Shown here in pieces: positions 23,028-31,246 of a DNA stretch of 32,000 nucleotides (its first letter is position 1; each line of letters starts with the position of its first letter). The DNA is from an uncultured Erysipelotrichaceae bacterium (lineage in GTDB: Bacteria; Bacillota_I; Bacilli_A; Erysipelotrichales; Erysipelotrichaceae), in contig OW818653.1 of the NCBI GenBank assembly GCA_942492995.1, forward strand, positions 1,976,348 through 2,008,347. Direction: 5' to 3'. A program made the position numbers and the translations under genes. A model generated the notes under the pieces. The model ran no database searches. It was given only the letters and a program-made list of their open reading frames with translations, and had not been told where the DNA came from.

Positions 23028-23960
23028 ATGATAACGAAACGATTGTGGCTTAGTATTTTATGCTTAATGATTCTAACATCCTGTTCGATGTTTTTTCCTG
23101 AAGTAAAAGAAGATCGGCCTTTAATTATTGAAGGATTAAGTGGAAAAGATCGCCAATTTACCTTAGCGGGCTTACCAAGTTATGTCCAAGAAGATAATGT
23201 ATATCGAATCATCGATGAGAAGGAATTAGCACTACTATCAATCATTCAAGAAAGAGAAAATGTACTAAAGGTTTTCTATGTGAGTGATAATCCAATCTCA
23301 ATTGATAAAACATTTGCATATATCGAAAGTGTTATCGCATATCCATTTAATATCACAATGACCGAAATTCCTTATACACGAAATGGTGAAGTTCTAACGA
23401 CGCTCTTTTCAATCGAAATTATGCCAAATGATGAAAATTATAAATCTATATATGATATTGGGAAAACGTGGAATCAATCCATTATTAAAGATGGGATGAG
23501 TAATAAAGAAAAAATAAAAGCGATACACGATGAAATCGTATTAGTAACACAGTATGACACAAGTATACTTGACATCGACTTAAGCGCATCTGTTAGACAT
23601 CCTTCATTTGAGGCAACAGGTGTATTTAACTACAATACTGCAGTTTGTAGCGGATATTCACGAGCGTTTAATGTGTTGGCACATGATCAAGGTATTCCAT
23701 CAATCATGGTGTCTTCCATTAGCATGTTACATGCATGGAACTTAGTATACGATGGTTTAAGTTGGAAATTTGTTGATACAACATTTAATGACCCTATTCC
23801 GAATCGTGAGAATAGAGTGCTATATACGTATTATCTTTTAAACAAAAATCAGTTCATACAAGATGGGAAACATACGTTTGATAAGAGTTCTGATACGACA
23901 TTATCAGCAGAAGAATATATTGAATTCGCTGAGTATGTTTATCCTGAAACAAAGCAATAA
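23028..23960 (+). CDS. Lipoprotein with a C-terminal transglutaminase-like (Cys-His-Asp) core
   Basis: Signal peptide plus lipobox (LMILTSC). The C-terminal AVCSGYSRAFNVLAH ... MLHAWNLV ... FVDTTFND arrangement matches the transglutaminase-like cysteine peptidase core. Confidence 0.7.
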   Translation: MITKRLWLSILCLMILTSCSMFFPEVKEDRPLIIEGLSGKDRQFTLAGLPSYVQEDNVYRIIDEKELALLSIIQERENVLKVFYVSDNPISIDKTFAYIESVIAYPFNITMTEIPYTRNGEVLTTLFSIEIMPNDENYKSIYDIGKTWNQSIIKDGMSNKEKIKAIHDEIVLVTQYDTSILDIDLSASVRHPSFEATGVFNYNTAVCSGYSRAFNVLAHDQGIPSIMVSSISMLHAWNLVYDGLSWKFVDTTFNDPIPNRENRVLYTYYLLNKNQFIQDGKHTFDKSSDTTLSAEEYIEFAEYVYPETKQ

Positions 23961-23979: not shown

Positions 23980-24007
23980 TTGCAATAATAATTAAATTCG
24001 ATACAAT
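23980..24007 (+). promoter_or_regulatory. Candidate sigma-A promoter of the leader / ankyrin / EF-G-paralog operon
   Basis: TTGCAA (23980-23985), a 16-nt spacer, then TACAAT (24002-24007). A perfect tandem AAGTATA AAGTATA (24010-24023) lies at the expected transcription start. Confidence 0.5.
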
Positions 24008-24039
24008 GAAAGTATAAAGTATAGAAAGAGGTGTTCATA

Positions 24040-24135
24040 ATGACAAGGGTATTGACTGTTTTTCTTGTCACACAAGACAATCAAACAACCGAGGTTGATG
24101 TCTTCGGCTGTGAATGCTTCATGAATGATTTTTAA
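24040..24135 (+). CDS. Candidate 31-codon leader ORF (MTRVLTVFLVTQDNQTTEVDVFGCECFMNDF)
   Basis: AAGAGGTG SD ends 6 nt before ATG 24040. The TAA at 24133-24135 overlaps the first bases of the terminator's 5' arm. It is too short for the ORF track, and I know of no homology. Confidence 0.35.
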   Translation: MTRVLTVFLVTQDNQTTEVDVFGCECFMNDF

Positions 24136-24170
24136 GATGGGTCTGGTGTGTCCATCTTTTTTATTTTCTT
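24134..24170 (+). terminator. Intrinsic terminator inside the operon leader (attenuator candidate)
   Basis: AAGATGG (24134-24140) / CCATCTT (24152-24158) with an 11-nt loop, followed by TTTTTTATTTTCTTTGTTT. It sits between the promoter and leader ORF and the ankyrin gene SD (AAGGAGG at 24184-24190). Confidence 0.7.
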
Positions 24171-24197
24171 TGTTTGAAGTACCAAGGAGGAACCAAT

Positions 24198-24866
24198 ATG
24201 GATCAAACAAATCAATTATTCTGGGAAGCAGCTGCAAGTGGTGACTTTCAAAAAGTCGTCGCAGCGCTAAACCAGGGCGCGGACGTAAATGTTCGCAATG
24301 CAGAGGCTAGAACAGCTTTAATGCGTACGGCAAAACGTGGGCATGAAAAAGTAGTTCGTTACCTGATTGATCATGGGGCTGATGTGAACGCAAAAGACAA
24401 TAATGGGAAGACGGCTTTGATGGGAGCGGCTAAAAAAGGCCACAATGAGATTGTGAAGATGTTAGTTGATGCGGGTGCGGATGTAAATATTCAGGATGTA
24501 AAAGGTCGCACTGCACTAATGCGTGCAGGATTCTTAGGTCACAATGAAGTTGTGGATATGTTAATTAAAAAGAATGCGAATGTGAATGCTAAAGATGAAA
24601 TGGGTAGAACCGTTCTTATGGAAGCTTGTTTAGCCTTTAGATATGATGTAATTAAGTTATTAGTAGATAAGAATGTAGAAATAAATGAACAAGATAATAA
24701 TGGATGTACAGCTTTAATGCGCGCTGCGTATAGTGGTTATGCGGAGTTAGTACAATATTTACTCGATCATGGGGCAGACAAAGAATTAATCGATTCAGAA
24801 GGTAATAAAGCCATTCACTATGTTAGAACTGATTGTTTAACGGAACTTAAACCGTTACTGAAATAG
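24198..24866 (+). CDS. Ankyrin-repeat protein with about 6.5 ANK repeats and no signal peptide
   Basis: Six consecutive 33-aa repeats of the form TALMxAAkkGHxEvVkxLvdxGADVNakDnxGx, for example TALMRTAKRGHEKVVRYLIDHGADVNAKDNNGK and TALMGAAKKGHNEIVKMLVDAGADVNIQDVKGR, plus capping half-repeats. The start at ATG 24198 lies 7 nt after AAGGAGG. The track start at 24174 lies upstream of the SD. Confidence 0.85.
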   Translation: MDQTNQLFWEAAASGDFQKVVAALNQGADVNVRNAEARTALMRTAKRGHEKVVRYLIDHGADVNAKDNNGKTALMGAAKKGHNEIVKMLVDAGADVNIQDVKGRTALMRAGFLGHNEVVDMLIKKNANVNAKDEMGRTVLMEACLAFRYDVIKLLVDKNVEINEQDNNGCTALMRAAYSGYAELVQYLLDHGADKELIDSEGNKAIHYVRTDCLTELKPLLK

Positions 24867-24878
24867 GGGAATAAAATA

Positions 24879-26960
24879 ATGAAAGATTATGCAGCGCACG
24901 AAGTTAAGAATATCTGTTTATTAGGTCATTCAGGTTCTGGAAAAACGGCTGTTGTGGAATCAATGCTTTATTTTACAAAGGCAACTGACCGTATGGGTAA
25001 AACCATAGATGGTACATCAGTGCTTGATTATGATGCGGAAGAAGTAAAACGAGGACTATCCGTCTTTACATCTCTTGCGCCAATAGAATGGAAAGATCAT
25101 AAGATTAATTTTATCGATACACCAGGTTATTTCGATTATGCACAAGAGATGGAAGCTGGTTTAGCTGTTGCGGATAATGCACTAATTGTTGTGGATGGAA
25201 AAGATGGTGTACAAACAGGTACACTTCGCGCATTCAAACAAGTATCTAAACGTAAGCTACCAACGATATTCTTCATTAATAAATTGGATGAAGAGAATAC
25301 AAGTTTTGACAAAGTATACAATCAATTACGTGATACCTTCGGTAAATCAGTTATACCATTTGAAATTCCTATTTATGAAAATGGTCAAATCGTTGGATCA
25401 GTTAATATTCTACGTAATAAAGCATGGTATTTGAATGATCGCGAAAATGCTAAAGATGTTCCAGAAGATTTGAAACCAATCGTTGAAGATTATCTAGCTC
25501 AAATTAGTGAATCAATTGCGATGACATGTGATGAGTTAATGGAAAAATTCTTCTCAGGTGAATCGTTTGATGAAGCTGAATTGATTCAAGGTGTTCGACT
25601 TGGCGTTAGATCTGGTGAGATTAGACCAGTCTATGCAGGTAGTGCAACGAAGATGTTAGGTATTGAAAGATTGATGGATTTAATTGGAGAATACTTCCCA
25701 TCTTATGGAGAATTAGGGACAGTTGAAGCATTAAATCAAAACAATGAAATAATTAAATTGCATACGGATGAATCAGAAGTATTTAGTGCATTAGTCTACA
25801 AAACAATCATTGACCCGTTTGTTGGAAGAATCTCATTTATTAAAGTTATGAGTGGATTCTTAACAAGTGATACTCAAGTCTATAATGTTCAAAAAGATAA
25901 AGCTGAAAAAGTAAGTCAAATATTTATCATCAAAGGCAAACATCAAATCGCAGTAGGCAAATTATTTACGGGTGACTTAGGGGCAATCGTTAAACTTCAA
26001 TACACTCAAACTAACGATACACTTGCGACTAAGGCTAAACTTGTAACATATGCACCAATAAAATTCCCAGAAGGATTATTGGCAATGAGTATTTGGCCGA
26101 AGAGCAAATTAGATGAAGATAAGATGAGTACATCACTTCAACGTGTTGAAGAAGAAGATCCTTCGTTCAAGATGGTAAAGAATGCGGAAACGAATGAACT
26201 AATTGTATATGGATTAGGTGATCAACACTTAGATGTCGTAGTCAATAAACTAAAGAGTAAATACAAAGTTGAAGTTGATTTGAAAGAACCACGTATTCCT
26301 TATCGTGAAACAATTAGAGCTACGGTAACGGTAGAAGGTAAACATAAGAAACAATCCGGTGGAGCAGGTCAGTTTGGAGATGTATTCATTACATTCGAAC
26401 CATGTGATTCACTCGATATGGTCTTTGAAGAAAAAGTAGTTGGAGGAGCAGTTCCTCGTCAATACTTCCCAGCGGTTGAAGCTGGTTTACGAGAAGCGAT
26501 GTTAAAAGGTGTACTTGCTGGATATCGTGTTGTTGGTGTTAAGGCAACGCTTGTGGATGGTAAGTATCACGATGTGGATTCAAAAGAAATCGCGTTTAAG
26601 ATGGCCGCAAGACTTGCGTATAAAGCTGGTATGCCATTAGCGAAACCTGTATTACTTGAACCAATTGTTAAAGTAGATGTTATTGCGCCAGAAGAATATA
26701 CTGGTACAATAATAGGTGACTTTAATAAACGTCGTGGATTGATTCTTGGAATGGATTTAAATGAAGAAGGTGAACAAGTTGTTTCAGCTGAAGTGCCGAT
26801 GTCAGAAGTTATGCGTTATTCAACAGAATTGAGATCCTTTACACAAGGTATCGGAACATATACTCAGAAATTCGATCGATATGAAGTTGCGCCACAACCA
26901 ATCGCTGATAAAGTTATTGCGCATGCCGCACATAGTTTAGATGACGATGACGATGAGTAA
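24879..26960 (+). CDS. Elongation factor G paralog (five-domain translational GTPase) with a non-canonical G1 and G3
   Basis: 693 aa. G1 GHSGSGKT, switch I RGLSV, G3 DTPGYFDY, G4 NKLD. Domain IV loop motifs HKKQSGGAGQFGDV and GKYHDVDSKEIAFKMAA match EF-G (QSGGRGQYGHV / SYHDVDSSEMAFKIAG). Acidic tail SLDDDDDE. It starts 12 nt after the ankyrin stop. It is not in an rpsL-rpsG-fusA-tuf context. Confidence 0.85.
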   Translation: MKDYAAHEVKNICLLGHSGSGKTAVVESMLYFTKATDRMGKTIDGTSVLDYDAEEVKRGLSVFTSLAPIEWKDHKINFIDTPGYFDYAQEMEAGLAVADNALIVVDGKDGVQTGTLRAFKQVSKRKLPTIFFINKLDEENTSFDKVYNQLRDTFGKSVIPFEIPIYENGQIVGSVNILRNKAWYLNDRENAKDVPEDLKPIVEDYLAQISESIAMTCDELMEKFFSGESFDEAELIQGVRLGVRSGEIRPVYAGSATKMLGIERLMDLIGEYFPSYGELGTVEALNQNNEIIKLHTDESEVFSALVYKTIIDPFVGRISFIKVMSGFLTSDTQVYNVQKDKAEKVSQIFIIKGKHQIAVGKLFTGDLGAIVKLQYTQTNDTLATKAKLVTYAPIKFPEGLLAMSIWPKSKLDEDKMSTSLQRVEEEDPSFKMVKNAETNELIVYGLGDQHLDVVVNKLKSKYKVEVDLKEPRIPYRETIRATVTVEGKHKKQSGGAGQFGDVFITFEPCDSLDMVFEEKVVGGAVPRQYFPAVEAGLREAMLKGVLAGYRVVGVKATLVDGKYHDVDSKEIAFKMAARLAYKAGMPLAKPVLLEPIVKVDVIAPEEYTGTIIGDFNKRRGLILGMDLNEEGEQVVSAEVPMSEVMRYSTELRSFTQGIGTYTQKFDRYEVAPQPIADKVIAHAAHSLDDDDDE

Positions 26961-26983
26961 GCGTGGAGAAATCCACGCTTTTC
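26959..26983 (+). terminator. Intrinsic terminator after the EF-G paralog
   Basis: 8-bp stem AGCGTGGA / TCCACGCT with loop GAAA, followed by TTTCT. It overlaps the TAA stop. Confidence 0.65.
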
Positions 26984-26995
26984 TAAGGAGAAATT

Positions 26996-27931
26996 ATGCC
27001 AAAATTATTCGCAATAGGTGGCGCAACCGTTGATTTAGTAGGTCGTCCCTACAAAACTTTAATCTATCAAGATTCAAACCCTGGTAGTGTTAAATTGTCT
27101 TTTGGAGGCGTTGCGCGAAATATCGCAGAAAATGCGGTTCGCTGTGGGAGTGAAGTGTCGTTAATGGCGCTTTTTGGTGATGATGCATTTGGTCAATTAT
27201 GTTATCAGTACTGTCAAAATCTTGGAATAGATCTATCGTTTAGTAATGTATTAAGCAATCACAGTTCTGCGACATATCTTGCATTACTTCAAGATAGTGG
27301 TGAGATGAATTTAGCGATAGCGGATATGGAAATCCTAAAAAAAGTAGATATAAATGATTTTGATCGTGGAATTAGTACGATGAAAATAGATGATTACTGT
27401 GCAATAGACACTAATTTAAGTGTTGAGGTATTAGAAAATTTATGTGCAAAAATACCTGCAAAGATTGCGATGGATCCTATCTCAACACAAAAAGCTGTAA
27501 AGGCAAAATCAATCTTAAAGTACTTATCTGTTTTTAAGCCAAACATTATGGAAGCAGAACTCGTTTGTGGTTTTGAAATCAATGATGATGTAAGTATGAA
27601 TAAGGCATTGGATTTCTTCACAGAAAAGGGTGTCAAAGAAATATTTATTACAGGTGGTGAAAAAGGTGTTTATACCAGTAATGGTAAATACAAATACCAC
27701 ATTTTTCATCAACCAGTAGAAACAGTAAATACAACAGGTGGCGGAGATGCATTTCTAGGAGTCTATCTCAGTTATCGCTTAAAAGGGTATGATTGGATAG
27801 AAGCGTGTGAATGGGGATTATATGCTTCTTATTTAACGGTCCAAACGAATGAAACAGTTGTCCGTGATCTTAGTGACGAGCTTTTATCTGAAGTGAAAGA
27901 AAGCATAATCATTTTTAAAGAAGAGTTATAA
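26996..27931 (+). CDS. PfkB-family carbohydrate kinase, pseudouridine kinase (YeiC/PsuK)-like
   Basis: 311 aa. DSNPGSVKLSFGGVARNIAEN, SATYLALLQDSGEMNLAIADM, DPISTQKAVK, FKPNIMEAELVCG, and TTGGGDAF line up block by block with E. coli YeiC as I remember it. Confidence 0.75.
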   Translation: MPKLFAIGGATVDLVGRPYKTLIYQDSNPGSVKLSFGGVARNIAENAVRCGSEVSLMALFGDDAFGQLCYQYCQNLGIDLSFSNVLSNHSSATYLALLQDSGEMNLAIADMEILKKVDINDFDRGISTMKIDDYCAIDTNLSVEVLENLCAKIPAKIAMDPISTQKAVKAKSILKYLSVFKPNIMEAELVCGFEINDDVSMNKALDFFTEKGVKEIFITGGEKGVYTSNGKYKYHIFHQPVETVNTTGGGDAFLGVYLSYRLKGYDWIEACEWGLYASYLTVQTNETVVRDLSDELLSEVKESIIIFKEEL

Positions 27932-30604: not shown

Positions 30605-30720
30605 CACCGTGAACAGGGGAGCCAAATGGCTGAGATGCGTAAGCAGACCCTCATCACCTGATCTAGTTAAGACTAGCGTAGGGAGTTACACTTTCCTTAC
30701 GCCTCCCGGAGGTGTTTTTT
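30605..30720 (+). promoter_or_regulatory. TPP (THI-box) riboswitch with a terminator / SD-sequestering hairpin
   Basis: CAGGGGAGCCAAATGGCTGAGATGCGTAAGCAGACCCTCATCACCTGATCTAGTTAAGACTAGCGTAGGGAG carries the GGGGxGC...CTGAGA...ACCC...ACCTGATCTxG...CxAGCGTAGGGA core. It is followed by the ACGCCTC-CCG-GAGGTGT hairpin and T7. The GGAGGTG SD of thiT forms the 3' arm. An extended -10, TGATATAAT, lies at 30593-30601. Confidence 0.9.
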
Positions 30721-30721
30721 T

Positions 30722-31246
30722 ATGAAAAGATCTAGAGTAGTTTTGGATATGGCGTGGATTGGTTTATACGCAGCATTGTTTATCGCACTTGATTATTTAT
30801 CTAATCAAGTCCCATTCTTTAGAATGCCAAATGGTGGAACGATTGGCTTTAGCACAATCATATTATTATTAGCAAGCTATCACTTAGGATGGAAAAAGGG
30901 AATTTTGGTTGCGTTAATCACTATTCCACTACAAGGATTCTTTGCGTCATATTATTCAGTTCATTTATTCGATTTCATTTTAGAATATGTCATAGCCTTT
31001 TCGATATATGGACTTGCTTCGCTTTTTCCTAATATTTATATAAAGCGTGTTGAAATTATGACTGGAGTAATCGTGGTAAATGTAATTCGATTCCTCATTC
31101 ATCTTGTGGCAGGCGTATATTTCTGGGAAGTTCCTTGGGCAGGATCATTTGCGTATAATGCATGGTACATGGTGCCGACAATGATAGTTGGGTTAATATT
31201 TACTCCATTATTATATAAGCGAATAAAATTGATCGTAAAACATTAA
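30722..31246 (+). CDS. thiT: Thiamine transporter ThiT (ECF S component)
   Basis: 174 aa with 6 TM helices. Sits directly behind a TPP riboswitch, and its size and the C-terminal W-rich segment (YFWEVPWAGSFAYNAWYM) are typical of ThiT. Confidence 0.8.
   Translation: MKRSRVVLDMAWIGLYAALFIALDYLSNQVPFFRMPNGGTIGFSTIILLLASYHLGWKKGILVALITIPLQGFFASYYSVHLFDFILEYVIAFSIYGLASLFPNIYIKRVEIMTGVIVVNVIRFLIHLVAGVYFWEVPWAGSFAYNAWYMVPTMIVGLIFTPLLYKRIKLIVKH

Follow-up and report, generated by a model that had tools for sequence, protein, structure and literature searches.

EFG II is the most widespread duplicate of elongation factor G (EF-G) in bacteria, and its role is unsettled: descriptions differ between organisms, from an active translocase to a ribosome trap in times of stress and a starvation-induced factor needed for gut colonisation. 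The subfamily is defined by six differentially conserved positions together with a relaxed G2 motif, in which RGITI becomes xxxSx (Margus et al. 2011, PMC3150367), and it is always accompanied in the genome by a canonical EF-G, EFG I (PMC3150367). Here we analyse an EFG II gene in a 32,000-nucleotide stretch of DNA from an uncultured Erysipelotrichaceae bacterium (contig OW818653.1, positions 1,976,348 to 2,008,347; this whole stretch is called the window below). The gene encodes an EF-G paralog and is preceded by a gene for a protein made only of ankyrin repeats and, further upstream, by a short leader open reading frame (ORF) whose stop codon lies at an intrinsic terminator.

The paralog shares the five-domain EF-G architecture with Thermus thermophilus EF-G-2 (PDB 1WDT), Mycobacterium smegmatis EF-G2 (PDB 9K0Z/9K10) and Bacteroides thetaiotaomicron EF-G2 (fusA2). 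It also shares with EFG II the Gly at the first position of the P-loop, the Ser of the relaxed G2 motif and, in domain II, Thr, Gly and Lys at positions 316, 360 and 379, and its gene likewise lies outside the str operon. As in M. smegmatis EF-G2, Tyr stands in place of the catalytic His of switch II; the M. smegmatis protein has no ribosome-dependent GTPase activity and is described as a trap for ribosomes during stress. The paralog differs from EFG II at position 28, which is Val here and Leu there, and its raw score is nearer to canonical EF-G. Described EFG II genes, unlike this operon, come without a conserved ankyrin partner or a leader-peptide attenuator. For example, B. thetaiotaomicron fusA2, which is induced 238-fold on carbon limitation and is required for gut colonisation, is under a DNA-binding activator.

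For the leader, one parallel is that of tet(M) in Tn916 (orf12), where an ORF of about 28 codons and a terminator precede an EF-G-family ribosome-binding protein, as they do here. The logic proposed for tet(M), in which a ribosome that stays level with the polymerase averts termination, is also the one that we suggest for this locus. The cargo, however, is no ribosomal protection protein here, and whereas the tet(M) model uses rare codons and alternative structures, here the ORF is kept across 25 lineages with its stop codon fused to the terminator. Later toeprint and mutational work has questioned any role of the tet(M) leader peptide. Natural attenuators that work by occlusion and coupling are the enterobacterial leaders of pyrE, with the rph stop codon, and of pyrBI. 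In these leaders and in a synthetic Escherichia coli series (PMC4824070), the ORF ends at or near the terminator and the following ribosome blocks the hairpin, an arrangement that our leader would share. The U-rich stretch before the hairpin of pyrE and pyrBI has a counterpart in the main subclade of our leaders only, the subgroup of loci L092-L096 being without it. The pyrE and pyrBI leaders belong to Proteobacteria with tight coupling and sense uridine triphosphate for pyrimidine genes, whereas here the host is one of the Bacillota and the cargo a translation-factor paralog. The antibiotic-responsive attenuator of the ABC-F gene msrD also places a leader ORF and a terminator upstream of a ribosome-acting protein, and the ABC-F genes vmlR and lmo0919, together with hflXr, erm and cat, have the same layout of leader ORF and terminator. 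All of these need drug-dependent arrest at defined codons and an antiterminator or a sequence pairing with the Shine-Dalgarno (SD) motif, but neither was found here.

For the ankyrin protein, a parallel outside bacteria is yeast Yar1, an ankyrin-only dedicated chaperone of ribosomal protein uS3. A small soluble ankyrin-only protein with one client in the translation machinery would match the one-to-one pairing described below, although only the repeat fold is in common, the host here is bacterial and the client is putative. Among free-living bacteria, few cytoplasmic ankyrin-only proteins are known to have a conserved partner of the housekeeping type.

EFG II, ankyrin repeats and leader-peptide attenuation are each known, but we did not find their combination described: an ankyrin/EFG II operon found throughout a family and preceded by a minimal attenuator, which has the stop codon inside the terminator and no antiterminator. 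A full-text literature search returned nothing on ankyrin plus EF-G in Erysipelotrichia. An earlier reading of this DNA, made from its letters and predicted ORFs (the sequence-only reading), had called the unit unlike any described system; this appears to hold for the pair but not for its EF-G part, which falls in the known EFG II subfamily.

Layout and recurrence of the ankyrin/EF-G operon

The unit occupies about 3 kb of the window and is laid out as follows.

23980-24007, plus strand: sigma-A-type promoter, with -35 TTGCAA at 23980-23985, a spacer of 16 nucleotides (nt) and -10 TACAAT at 24002-24007
24028-24033, plus strand: SD motif of the leader, GAGGTG, 6 nt 5' of the leader ATG
24040-24135, plus strand: leader ORF of 31 codons (MTRVLTVFLVTQDNQTTEVDVFGCECFMNDF), with ATG at 24040 and TAA at 24133-24135
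24134-24172, plus strand: intrinsic terminator/attenuator, with a stem-loop at 24134-24158 (AAGATGGGT/loop/GTCCATCTT) and a T-rich tract to about 24172
24171-24177, plus strand: TGTTTGA box, between the terminator tail and the SD of the ankyrin gene
24184-24190, plus strand: SD of the ankyrin gene, AAGGAGG, an AGGAGG-type motif in the same place in all related loci
24198-24866, plus strand: ankyrin-repeat-only protein of 222 amino acids (aa), matching Pfam Ank families only
24879-26960, plus strand: EF-G paralog (EFG II) of 693 aa, with five EF-G domains
26959-26984, plus strand: terminator-like 3' hairpin AAGCGTGGA-GAAA-TCCACGCTT, with a stem-loop at 26959-26980 and the tail TTTTCT

The promoter, leader ORF, terminator, ankyrin protein and EF-G paralog that the sequence-only reading had listed are all present, and it had placed the leader ORF essentially correctly; the ORF listing opens the same frame at an upstream GTG (24031). 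The ankyrin gene starts 39 nt after the end of the leader hairpin, with AAGGAGG inside this interval, and 12 nt separate its stop codon from the start of the EF-G paralog.

Related loci were collected by exact-protein look-ups, a one-genome-per-species scan and a metagenome scan, and all of their ORFs were screened with the window's two proteins. At every one of the 27 loci whose EF-G is 58-88% identical to the paralog, the ankyrin gene is on the same strand and ends 0-28 nt 5' of the EF-G gene. At 51% EF-G identity or less, it is absent from the available flanks of all 142 loci, about 117 of which have at least 800 nt upstream. Carriers that bear a name are Amedibacillus dolichus, Solobacterium, Anaerorhabdus and Erysipelothrix-labelled assemblies, and all belong to the Erysipelotrichaceae, a family with gut and environmental members. 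Flanking genes differ on both sides between lineages, and only the leader, the ankyrin gene and the paralog travel together. The possibility that the adjacency is unique to this genome, which had been named as an outcome that would speak against a module, is contradicted by these 27 paired loci with differing flanks, and the unit is a recurrent module. We further note that no other recurrent partner was found beside ankyrin-less EFG II genes, the only recurrent neighbours being rpsG and rpsJ at canonical fusA loci.

The EF-G paralog and the ankyrin protein

The Pfam families GTP_EFTU, EF-G_D2, EFG_III, EFG_IV and EFG_C cover residues 8-678 of the paralog. Among the NCBIfam models, NF009381, a subfamily model, matches it best (868 bits). 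The paralog scores below the cut-off of the canonical EF-G model TIGR00484 (639 bits against 659.4, with DTPGY and not DTPGH), below that of the 'EF-G2' model NF009377 (565 bits against 890), and below that of NF012153, the model for tetracycline ribosomal protection of the Tet(M)/Tet(O) type (301 bits against 775). Its raw scores are 533 bits to Staphylococcus aureus EF-G versus 409-434 bits to the solved EF-G2 proteins. The diagnostic residues of EFG II (Gly19, Leu28, Ser64, Thr316, Gly360 and Lys/Arg379 in T. thermophilus EF-G1 numbering) were read from an alignment to T. thermophilus EF-G plus an alignment of the clade. Five of the six match exactly, namely Gly19 (G16 in the paralog's own numbering), Ser64 (own S61), Thr316, Gly360 and Lys379, and position 28 is Val. 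The five domains are present, the G2 motif is relaxed (RGLSV), and the other G motifs are kept (G1 GHSGSGKT, G3 DTPGYFDY, then NKLD and GSA). With five of the six diagnostic matches and RGLSV, the paralog is therefore filed as an EFG II member.

The catalytic His of switch II is replaced by Tyr84, which is invariant in the ankyrin-linked clade. Tyr or Phe is usual at this position in the wider family as well (Clostridia, Tissierellia and other groups), so that the altered GTPase centre noticed in the sequence-only reading is real but is a trait of the whole wider family and not of this locus. The paralog lacks the catalytic histidine and probably continues to bind guanosine triphosphate (GTP). 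Both motifs at the tip of domain IV, HKKQSGGAGQFG and YHDVDSKE, are invariant, and the part that reaches the decoding centre is therefore retained. The gene lies outside the rpsG-fusA-tuf context, inside which 15 distant loci are found, and there is no second EF-G gene in the 32-kb window.

At fourteen positions, the paralog has a residue that is constant throughout the ankyrin-linked clade and seldom found in other relatives; seven of these positions fall in the G/G' region (162-276). Positions 162, 183, 184, 244, 264, 268, 276, 296, 360, 363, 444, 608 and 650 are among those specific to the clade; they include an exposed-looking pair, W183/Y184, and are candidate sites of contact with a partner. 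The acidic C-terminal tail of the paralog was considered as a handle for ankyrin binding and dismissed, since tails like it are found in ankyrin-less relatives and are missing from the L092-L096 subgroup. At one related locus, in an Erysipelotrichaceae metagenome-assembled genome, the paralog is split into overlapping ORFs of 181 and 521 aa (L024:4308-6387). Faulty assembly may have produced the split, or the gene may be a frameshift pseudogene; its leader and the ankyrin gene beside it are both intact.

The ankyrin protein matches the Pfam families Ank_2 (E = 8e-48) and Ank (E = 1.4e-45) and no others. It consists of five full 33-residue repeats, registered on T[AV]LM, with N- and C-terminal capping repeats, and its 222 aa hold no signal peptide or further domain. 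Its orthologs are 55-86% identical and fixed in length at 222-223 aa; their divergence tracks that of the EF-G paralog, and the two proteins are equally conserved. Within the ankyrin orthologs, the mean frequency of the top residue is 0.72 on the concave face, where ankyrin proteins usually bind their partners, versus 0.74 in the framework, so that the putative binding face is no less conserved than the rest. An invariant basic stripe is partly the general ankyrin consensus, which limits its weight. In PADLOC, the ankyrin protein has generic ankyrin-type matches only (PDC-M72A, Ankyrin, MzaA) and the EF-G paralog has none, and no defence system is indicated. A homolog search for the ankyrin protein in a set of 5.8 billion proteins returned generic multi-repeat ankyrin proteins; the known orthologs were not listed, and the search carries no information on distribution. 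Shared transcription, near-abutting frames, co-inheritance and equal conservation point to an ankyrin protein that acts with the paralog. The sequence-only reading had suggested a partner, adaptor or inhibitor of the paralog, a role that the tight and conserved linkage makes plausible.

The leader, its terminator and the borders of the operon

The related loci provide 25 distinct leaders, of which 24 are non-redundant for the geometry of stop codon and stem; folding was likewise done on 24. In 25 of 25 related loci, a promoter pair of the form TTGnnn-16/17-TAnnnT lies 20-48 nt 5' of the leader ATG. All 25 leaders also have an SD-like motif within 20 nt of the start codon and an ORF of 19-35 codons. 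The distance from the terminator to the ankyrin ATG is 28-49 nt, and no promoter-like site was found in this interval; the ankyrin and EF-G genes are therefore reached only by read-through. When the 130 nt 5' of each terminator were shuffled, a comparable SD-led ORF ending at the hairpin arose in about 5% of trials per locus, versus 25/25 observed, and a similar layout is present in only one of 104 regions upstream of ankyrin-less relatives. The leader stop codon overlaps the hairpin or sits inside it in 24/24 non-redundant leaders: it begins 1-2 nt before the stem in 18 of them and within the stem or loop (+2 to +14) in the other six. At ordinary terminator-bearing gene ends in the same collection of loci, such an overlap of hairpin and stop is found in 24 of 239 cases (10%).

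The sequence inside this frame drifts freely. Leader peptides cannot be aligned, while the presence of the ORF, its length and its end-point are kept, and the interior has no conserved sequence between lineages. Even among relatives whose paralogs are 75-88% identical, the interior of the ORF is the least conserved part of the leader, and the promoter, the SD/ATG, the terminator and the SD of the ankyrin gene stand out as conserved blocks in the alignment. Indels between the leaders of the window and of L001 are in frame, and the equivalent ORF of 34 codons in L005 had already been annotated by a gene caller. In the peptides, Phe, Cys, Val and Asn are frequent, and Asp, Glu and Ala are scarce; across the 25 leaders, no codon runs and no shared arrest motif were found beyond a frequent C-terminal Phe in one subclade. 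A drifting interior within a kept ORF fits selection for translation and not for a peptide or an aptamer, and the extent of sequence turnover argues for repeated, independent upkeep of the leader plan.

The subclade with the C-terminal Phe is the AAGATGG-type one (the window, L001, L004, L006-L008, L010, L012, L024, L089, L090 and L097), in which the peptide usually ends in Phe before the stop (TTT TAA or TTT TAG). This Phe is frequent because a run of four to six T precedes the hairpin, and the run itself may reflect either a pause signal for the polymerase or selection at the codon level. A second motif, the TGTTTGA box, is invariant in a closer subclade (the window, L001, L003, L004, L006, L007, L011, L088 and L097); it could be an extended context of the U-tract, a standby site or a protein-binding site.

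In the window, the promoter match at 23980-24007, taken alone, is no better than in shuffled sequence; we infer a transcription start near 24013-24015. The terminator has a 9-bp stem (24134-24158) followed by TTTTTTATTTTC, and the AA of the leader stop codon forms its first two bases. The hairpin is modest, at -8 kcal/mol with three G-C pairs, and has a pairing probability of 0.94 in the fold of the full leader. An Rfam search of the whole window and of the leader, with E values up to 10, gave no match for the leader except a terminator-only resemblance to the L20 leader. A structured-RNA reading of the leader was rejected, the whole-leader fold being no stabler than shuffles (z = -0.2). An 81-aa ORF that crosses the leader on the minus strand (23992-24237) was also set aside; it is not conserved, and a minus-strand ORF of at least 60 aa is found there in only 6 of 25 loci.

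To see how translation might bear on the terminator, each of the 24 leaders was folded up to and including the hairpin, and the footprint of a ribosome was masked at one codon after another. The probability of the terminator is about 0.9 with no ribosome or with the ribosome elsewhere in the ORF, and 0 with the ribosome on the last two to four codons, or on the last 6-8 in those leaders whose ORF enters the hairpin. With the ribosome in mid-ORF, the terminator stays at about 0.9 in 21/24 leaders, and only three show a partial dip. No conserved antiterminator or alternative structure was found in the masked folds of the 24 leaders. The sole conserved link between translation and termination in these models is steric, with a ribosome at the end of the ORF covering the 5' arm of the stem. 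The leader has the short SD-led ORF, the terminator and the lack of an intervening promoter that mark ribosome-mediated attenuators in general, but neither an exclusive antiterminator nor regulatory codons or an arrest motif; it does have the ORF ending at or inside the terminator that marks attenuators of the pyrE/pyrBI kind. Its best reading, from the folds, is a ribosome-occlusion, coupling-type attenuator rather than a stall sensor of the erm or ABC-F type. The sequence-only reading had suggested induction when translation of the leader stalls; the masked folds without an antiterminator, the peptides without a conserved arrest sequence and the occlusion geometry speak otherwise. Two further features were tried and not adopted. 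A NusG-type TTNTTT pause motif before the hairpin is visible by eye in a few leaders only and is not claimed, and sequestering of the SD by the distal ORF is seen in many folds but only modestly above shuffles, so that it is at most tentative.

The 3' hairpin at 26959-26980 has a stability of about -14 to -16 kcal/mol (z = -2.5 against shuffles) and was not called by a consensus terminator scan because its T-tract is short. The stop codon of the EF-G paralog overlaps its base, the same geometry as in the leader, and a comparable hairpin lies 3' of the EF-G stop in 21/23 related loci. The next gene encodes a pfkB-family kinase (26996-27931), and its SD is directly 3' of the EF-G hairpin; some transcription past the hairpin into the downstream genes is plausible in this genome. 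On the 5' side, no terminator was found between the end of the upstream lipoprotein gene (23960) and the promoter. Of the strong terminators said to bracket the unit, only the 3' one is borne out, as a hairpin with a short tail that escapes the scan. The upstream gene is transglutaminase-core lipoprotein-like (23028-23960, plus strand), with a weak match to the MAG6410 family. It precedes the operon in several lineages (also L001, L003, L086 and L090) but not in all, and it is outside the conserved unit.

The window also contains two riboswitches. On the minus strand, just downstream of a 434-aa pyridine-nucleotide-disulfide-oxidoreductase-like ORF (1201-2505), is a glycine riboswitch aptamer (1084-1168; Rfam RF00504, 61 bits, E = 1.5e-10), and the gene that it controls runs towards or off the start of the window. 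A thiamine pyrophosphate (TPP) riboswitch (30605-30701, plus strand; RF00059, 61 bits) lies directly 5' of a 174-aa ORF (30722-31246), whose syntenic counterpart in L001 is a YuaJ-type thiamine transporter.

Weighing the explanations and what they would mean

We propose that transcription would start at the conserved sigma-A promoter and meet the intrinsic terminator about 40 nt 5' of the ankyrin gene, with the ankyrin and EF-G proteins made only by read-through. A ribosome on the last codons or on the stop would cover the 5' arm of the stem, and no hairpin would form while RNA polymerase is on the U-tract; if no ribosome had arrived, the hairpin would form and transcription would end. The leader would then sense whether a first ribosome is loaded and has drawn level with the polymerase, and so report coupling or ribosome availability. 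It would not be a sensor of stalls in mid-ORF: most elongation stalls would lower expression, which would rise only on arrest at the last codons or the stop. A measured precedent comes from E. coli, where termination at tR2 dropped from about 90% to below 10% once the upstream stop codon was brought from 28 bp to 5 bp away, an effect that was lost on deletion of the ribosome-binding site (PMC4824070). The ankyrin protein would be a dedicated partner of the paralog, as a chaperone, an adaptor or a gate, and the pair would act on ribosomes in certain states of growth, like other EFG II proteins, which bind ribosomes and are linked to stress or starvation; by analogy with these, a role on ribosomes in slow growth or stress is the most likely one. 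The explanation as a whole, a lineage-specific and self-contained two-gene operon of Erysipelotrichaceae with an occlusion attenuator, a cytoplasmic ankyrin-only protein that partners the paralog and a role on ribosomes, is one that we think probable, though only narrowly so.

Several points weigh against this explanation. Conserved adjacency is no proof that the ankyrin protein and EF-G bind each other, and the leader statistics (25/25, and the comparisons with shuffles and with gene ends) ignore shared ancestry. In the masked folds, the fall to 0 over the last codons follows from the masking itself, and the informative part is the absence of any other change. RNA polymerase reportedly outruns ribosomes in Bacillus subtilis (Johnson et al. 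2020); if this holds in Bacillota, a coupling device would need a pause, and no conserved pause signal was identified in the leaders. Only the main subclade has the T-run before the hairpin, and the L092-L096 subgroup is without it. Between the leader SD and the 3' part of the ORF, base pairing exceeds that in shuffles only modestly (0.66 vs 0.57). As to the paralog, the change from His to Tyr alone is no proof of lost GTPase activity: T. thermophilus EF-G2 has been reported active in GTP hydrolysis and translocation. That protein presumably also has Tyr at the position of the catalytic His.

The leader could instead work by stall induction, as attenuators of the erm, cat, ABC-F or HflXr type do; a ribosome arrested in the leader by an antibiotic or by some ribosome defect would then bring about an antiterminator that switches on a ribosome-binding cargo. 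The layout of leader ORF, terminator and translation-factor homolog matches, and tet(M), an EF-G-family gene, is also found behind a leader ORF and a terminator. A stall on the last two to four codons or on the stop would block the terminator in our folds too, yet no alternative pairing is conserved, and with the ribosome in mid-ORF the terminator persists in nearly all leaders. The unalignable peptides, which have no arrest motif beyond the frequent C-terminal Phe of one subclade, and the score of the paralog far under the tetracycline-protection cut-off also make this explanation unlikely. Another account does without regulation: the ORF and terminator would damp a strong promoter or form a small transcript, and fixed read-through would give low constitutive expression. 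A hairpin as modest as this one (-8 kcal/mol, three G-C pairs) is likely to leak to some extent, and stop codons overlap terminators at ordinary gene ends as well, including the 3' end of the EF-G gene. A damper, however, needs no translated ORF, whereas the SD, the start, a frame of 19-35 codons and the place of the stop are kept in every leader, and the overlap of stop and terminator in 24/24 leaders compares with 10% at ordinary gene ends. We regard fixed read-through as improbable on these grounds.

Terminators controlled by proteins or ligands are the common type of attenuator in Bacillota, and the leader might be an RNA element that responds to a small molecule or to a protein (through a riboswitch, a leader of the ribosomal-protein type, or autoregulation by the ankyrin protein or EF-G2), with the ORF incidental. 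The window itself has glycine and TPP riboswitches, and the TGTTTGA box is conserved after the terminator. This explanation is nonetheless very unlikely, given that Rfam offers only a terminator-level resemblance at E up to 10, that the leader is no stabler than shuffled sequence and without conserved interior sequence between lineages, and that the keeping of the ORF in 25/25 leaders is unexpected for an incidental frame. Bacterial ankyrin genes are often mobile and lineage-restricted, and the ankyrin gene and the EF-G paralog could be functionally unrelated neighbours by chance or recent insertion. The neighbourhood analysis already contradicts chance adjacency, since the two genes stand 0-28 nt apart at 27/27 loci across 58-88% EF-G identity among unrelated flanks; the ankyrin protein diverges in step with the paralog at a fixed length, and a single promoter and a single attenuator are common to both genes, with a 3' hairpin after them. 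We consider this possibility exceedingly slight.

A bolder version of the occlusion explanation is that the ankyrin protein and EF-G2 form a module for ribosome parking or alternative translocation, in which the ankyrin protein gates or delivers a GTPase-impaired factor and both are switched by a sensor of ribosome-polymerase proximity. This is speculative, and we hold it to be rather doubtful. If it were true, the leader would provide a natural case of coupling-dependent attenuation within Bacillota, a phylum whose transcription and translation are regarded as largely uncoupled. Expression of the operon would report a surplus of idle ribosomes or a slowdown of the polymerase (for example, under nucleotide limitation), with feedback on the pool of ribosomes.

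If the occlusion reading is true, the design of the leader, with its stop codon fused to the terminator and no antiterminator, would be a minimal sensor of ribosome presence, and the leader would test the extent of transcription-translation coupling in a Bacillota lineage. For EFG II, the clade offers a candidate binding protein together with a leader of about 160 nt whose read-through should show which cell state calls for the factor. The conserved pairing and the leader thus make the function and regulation of an enigmatic EF-G paralog directly testable.

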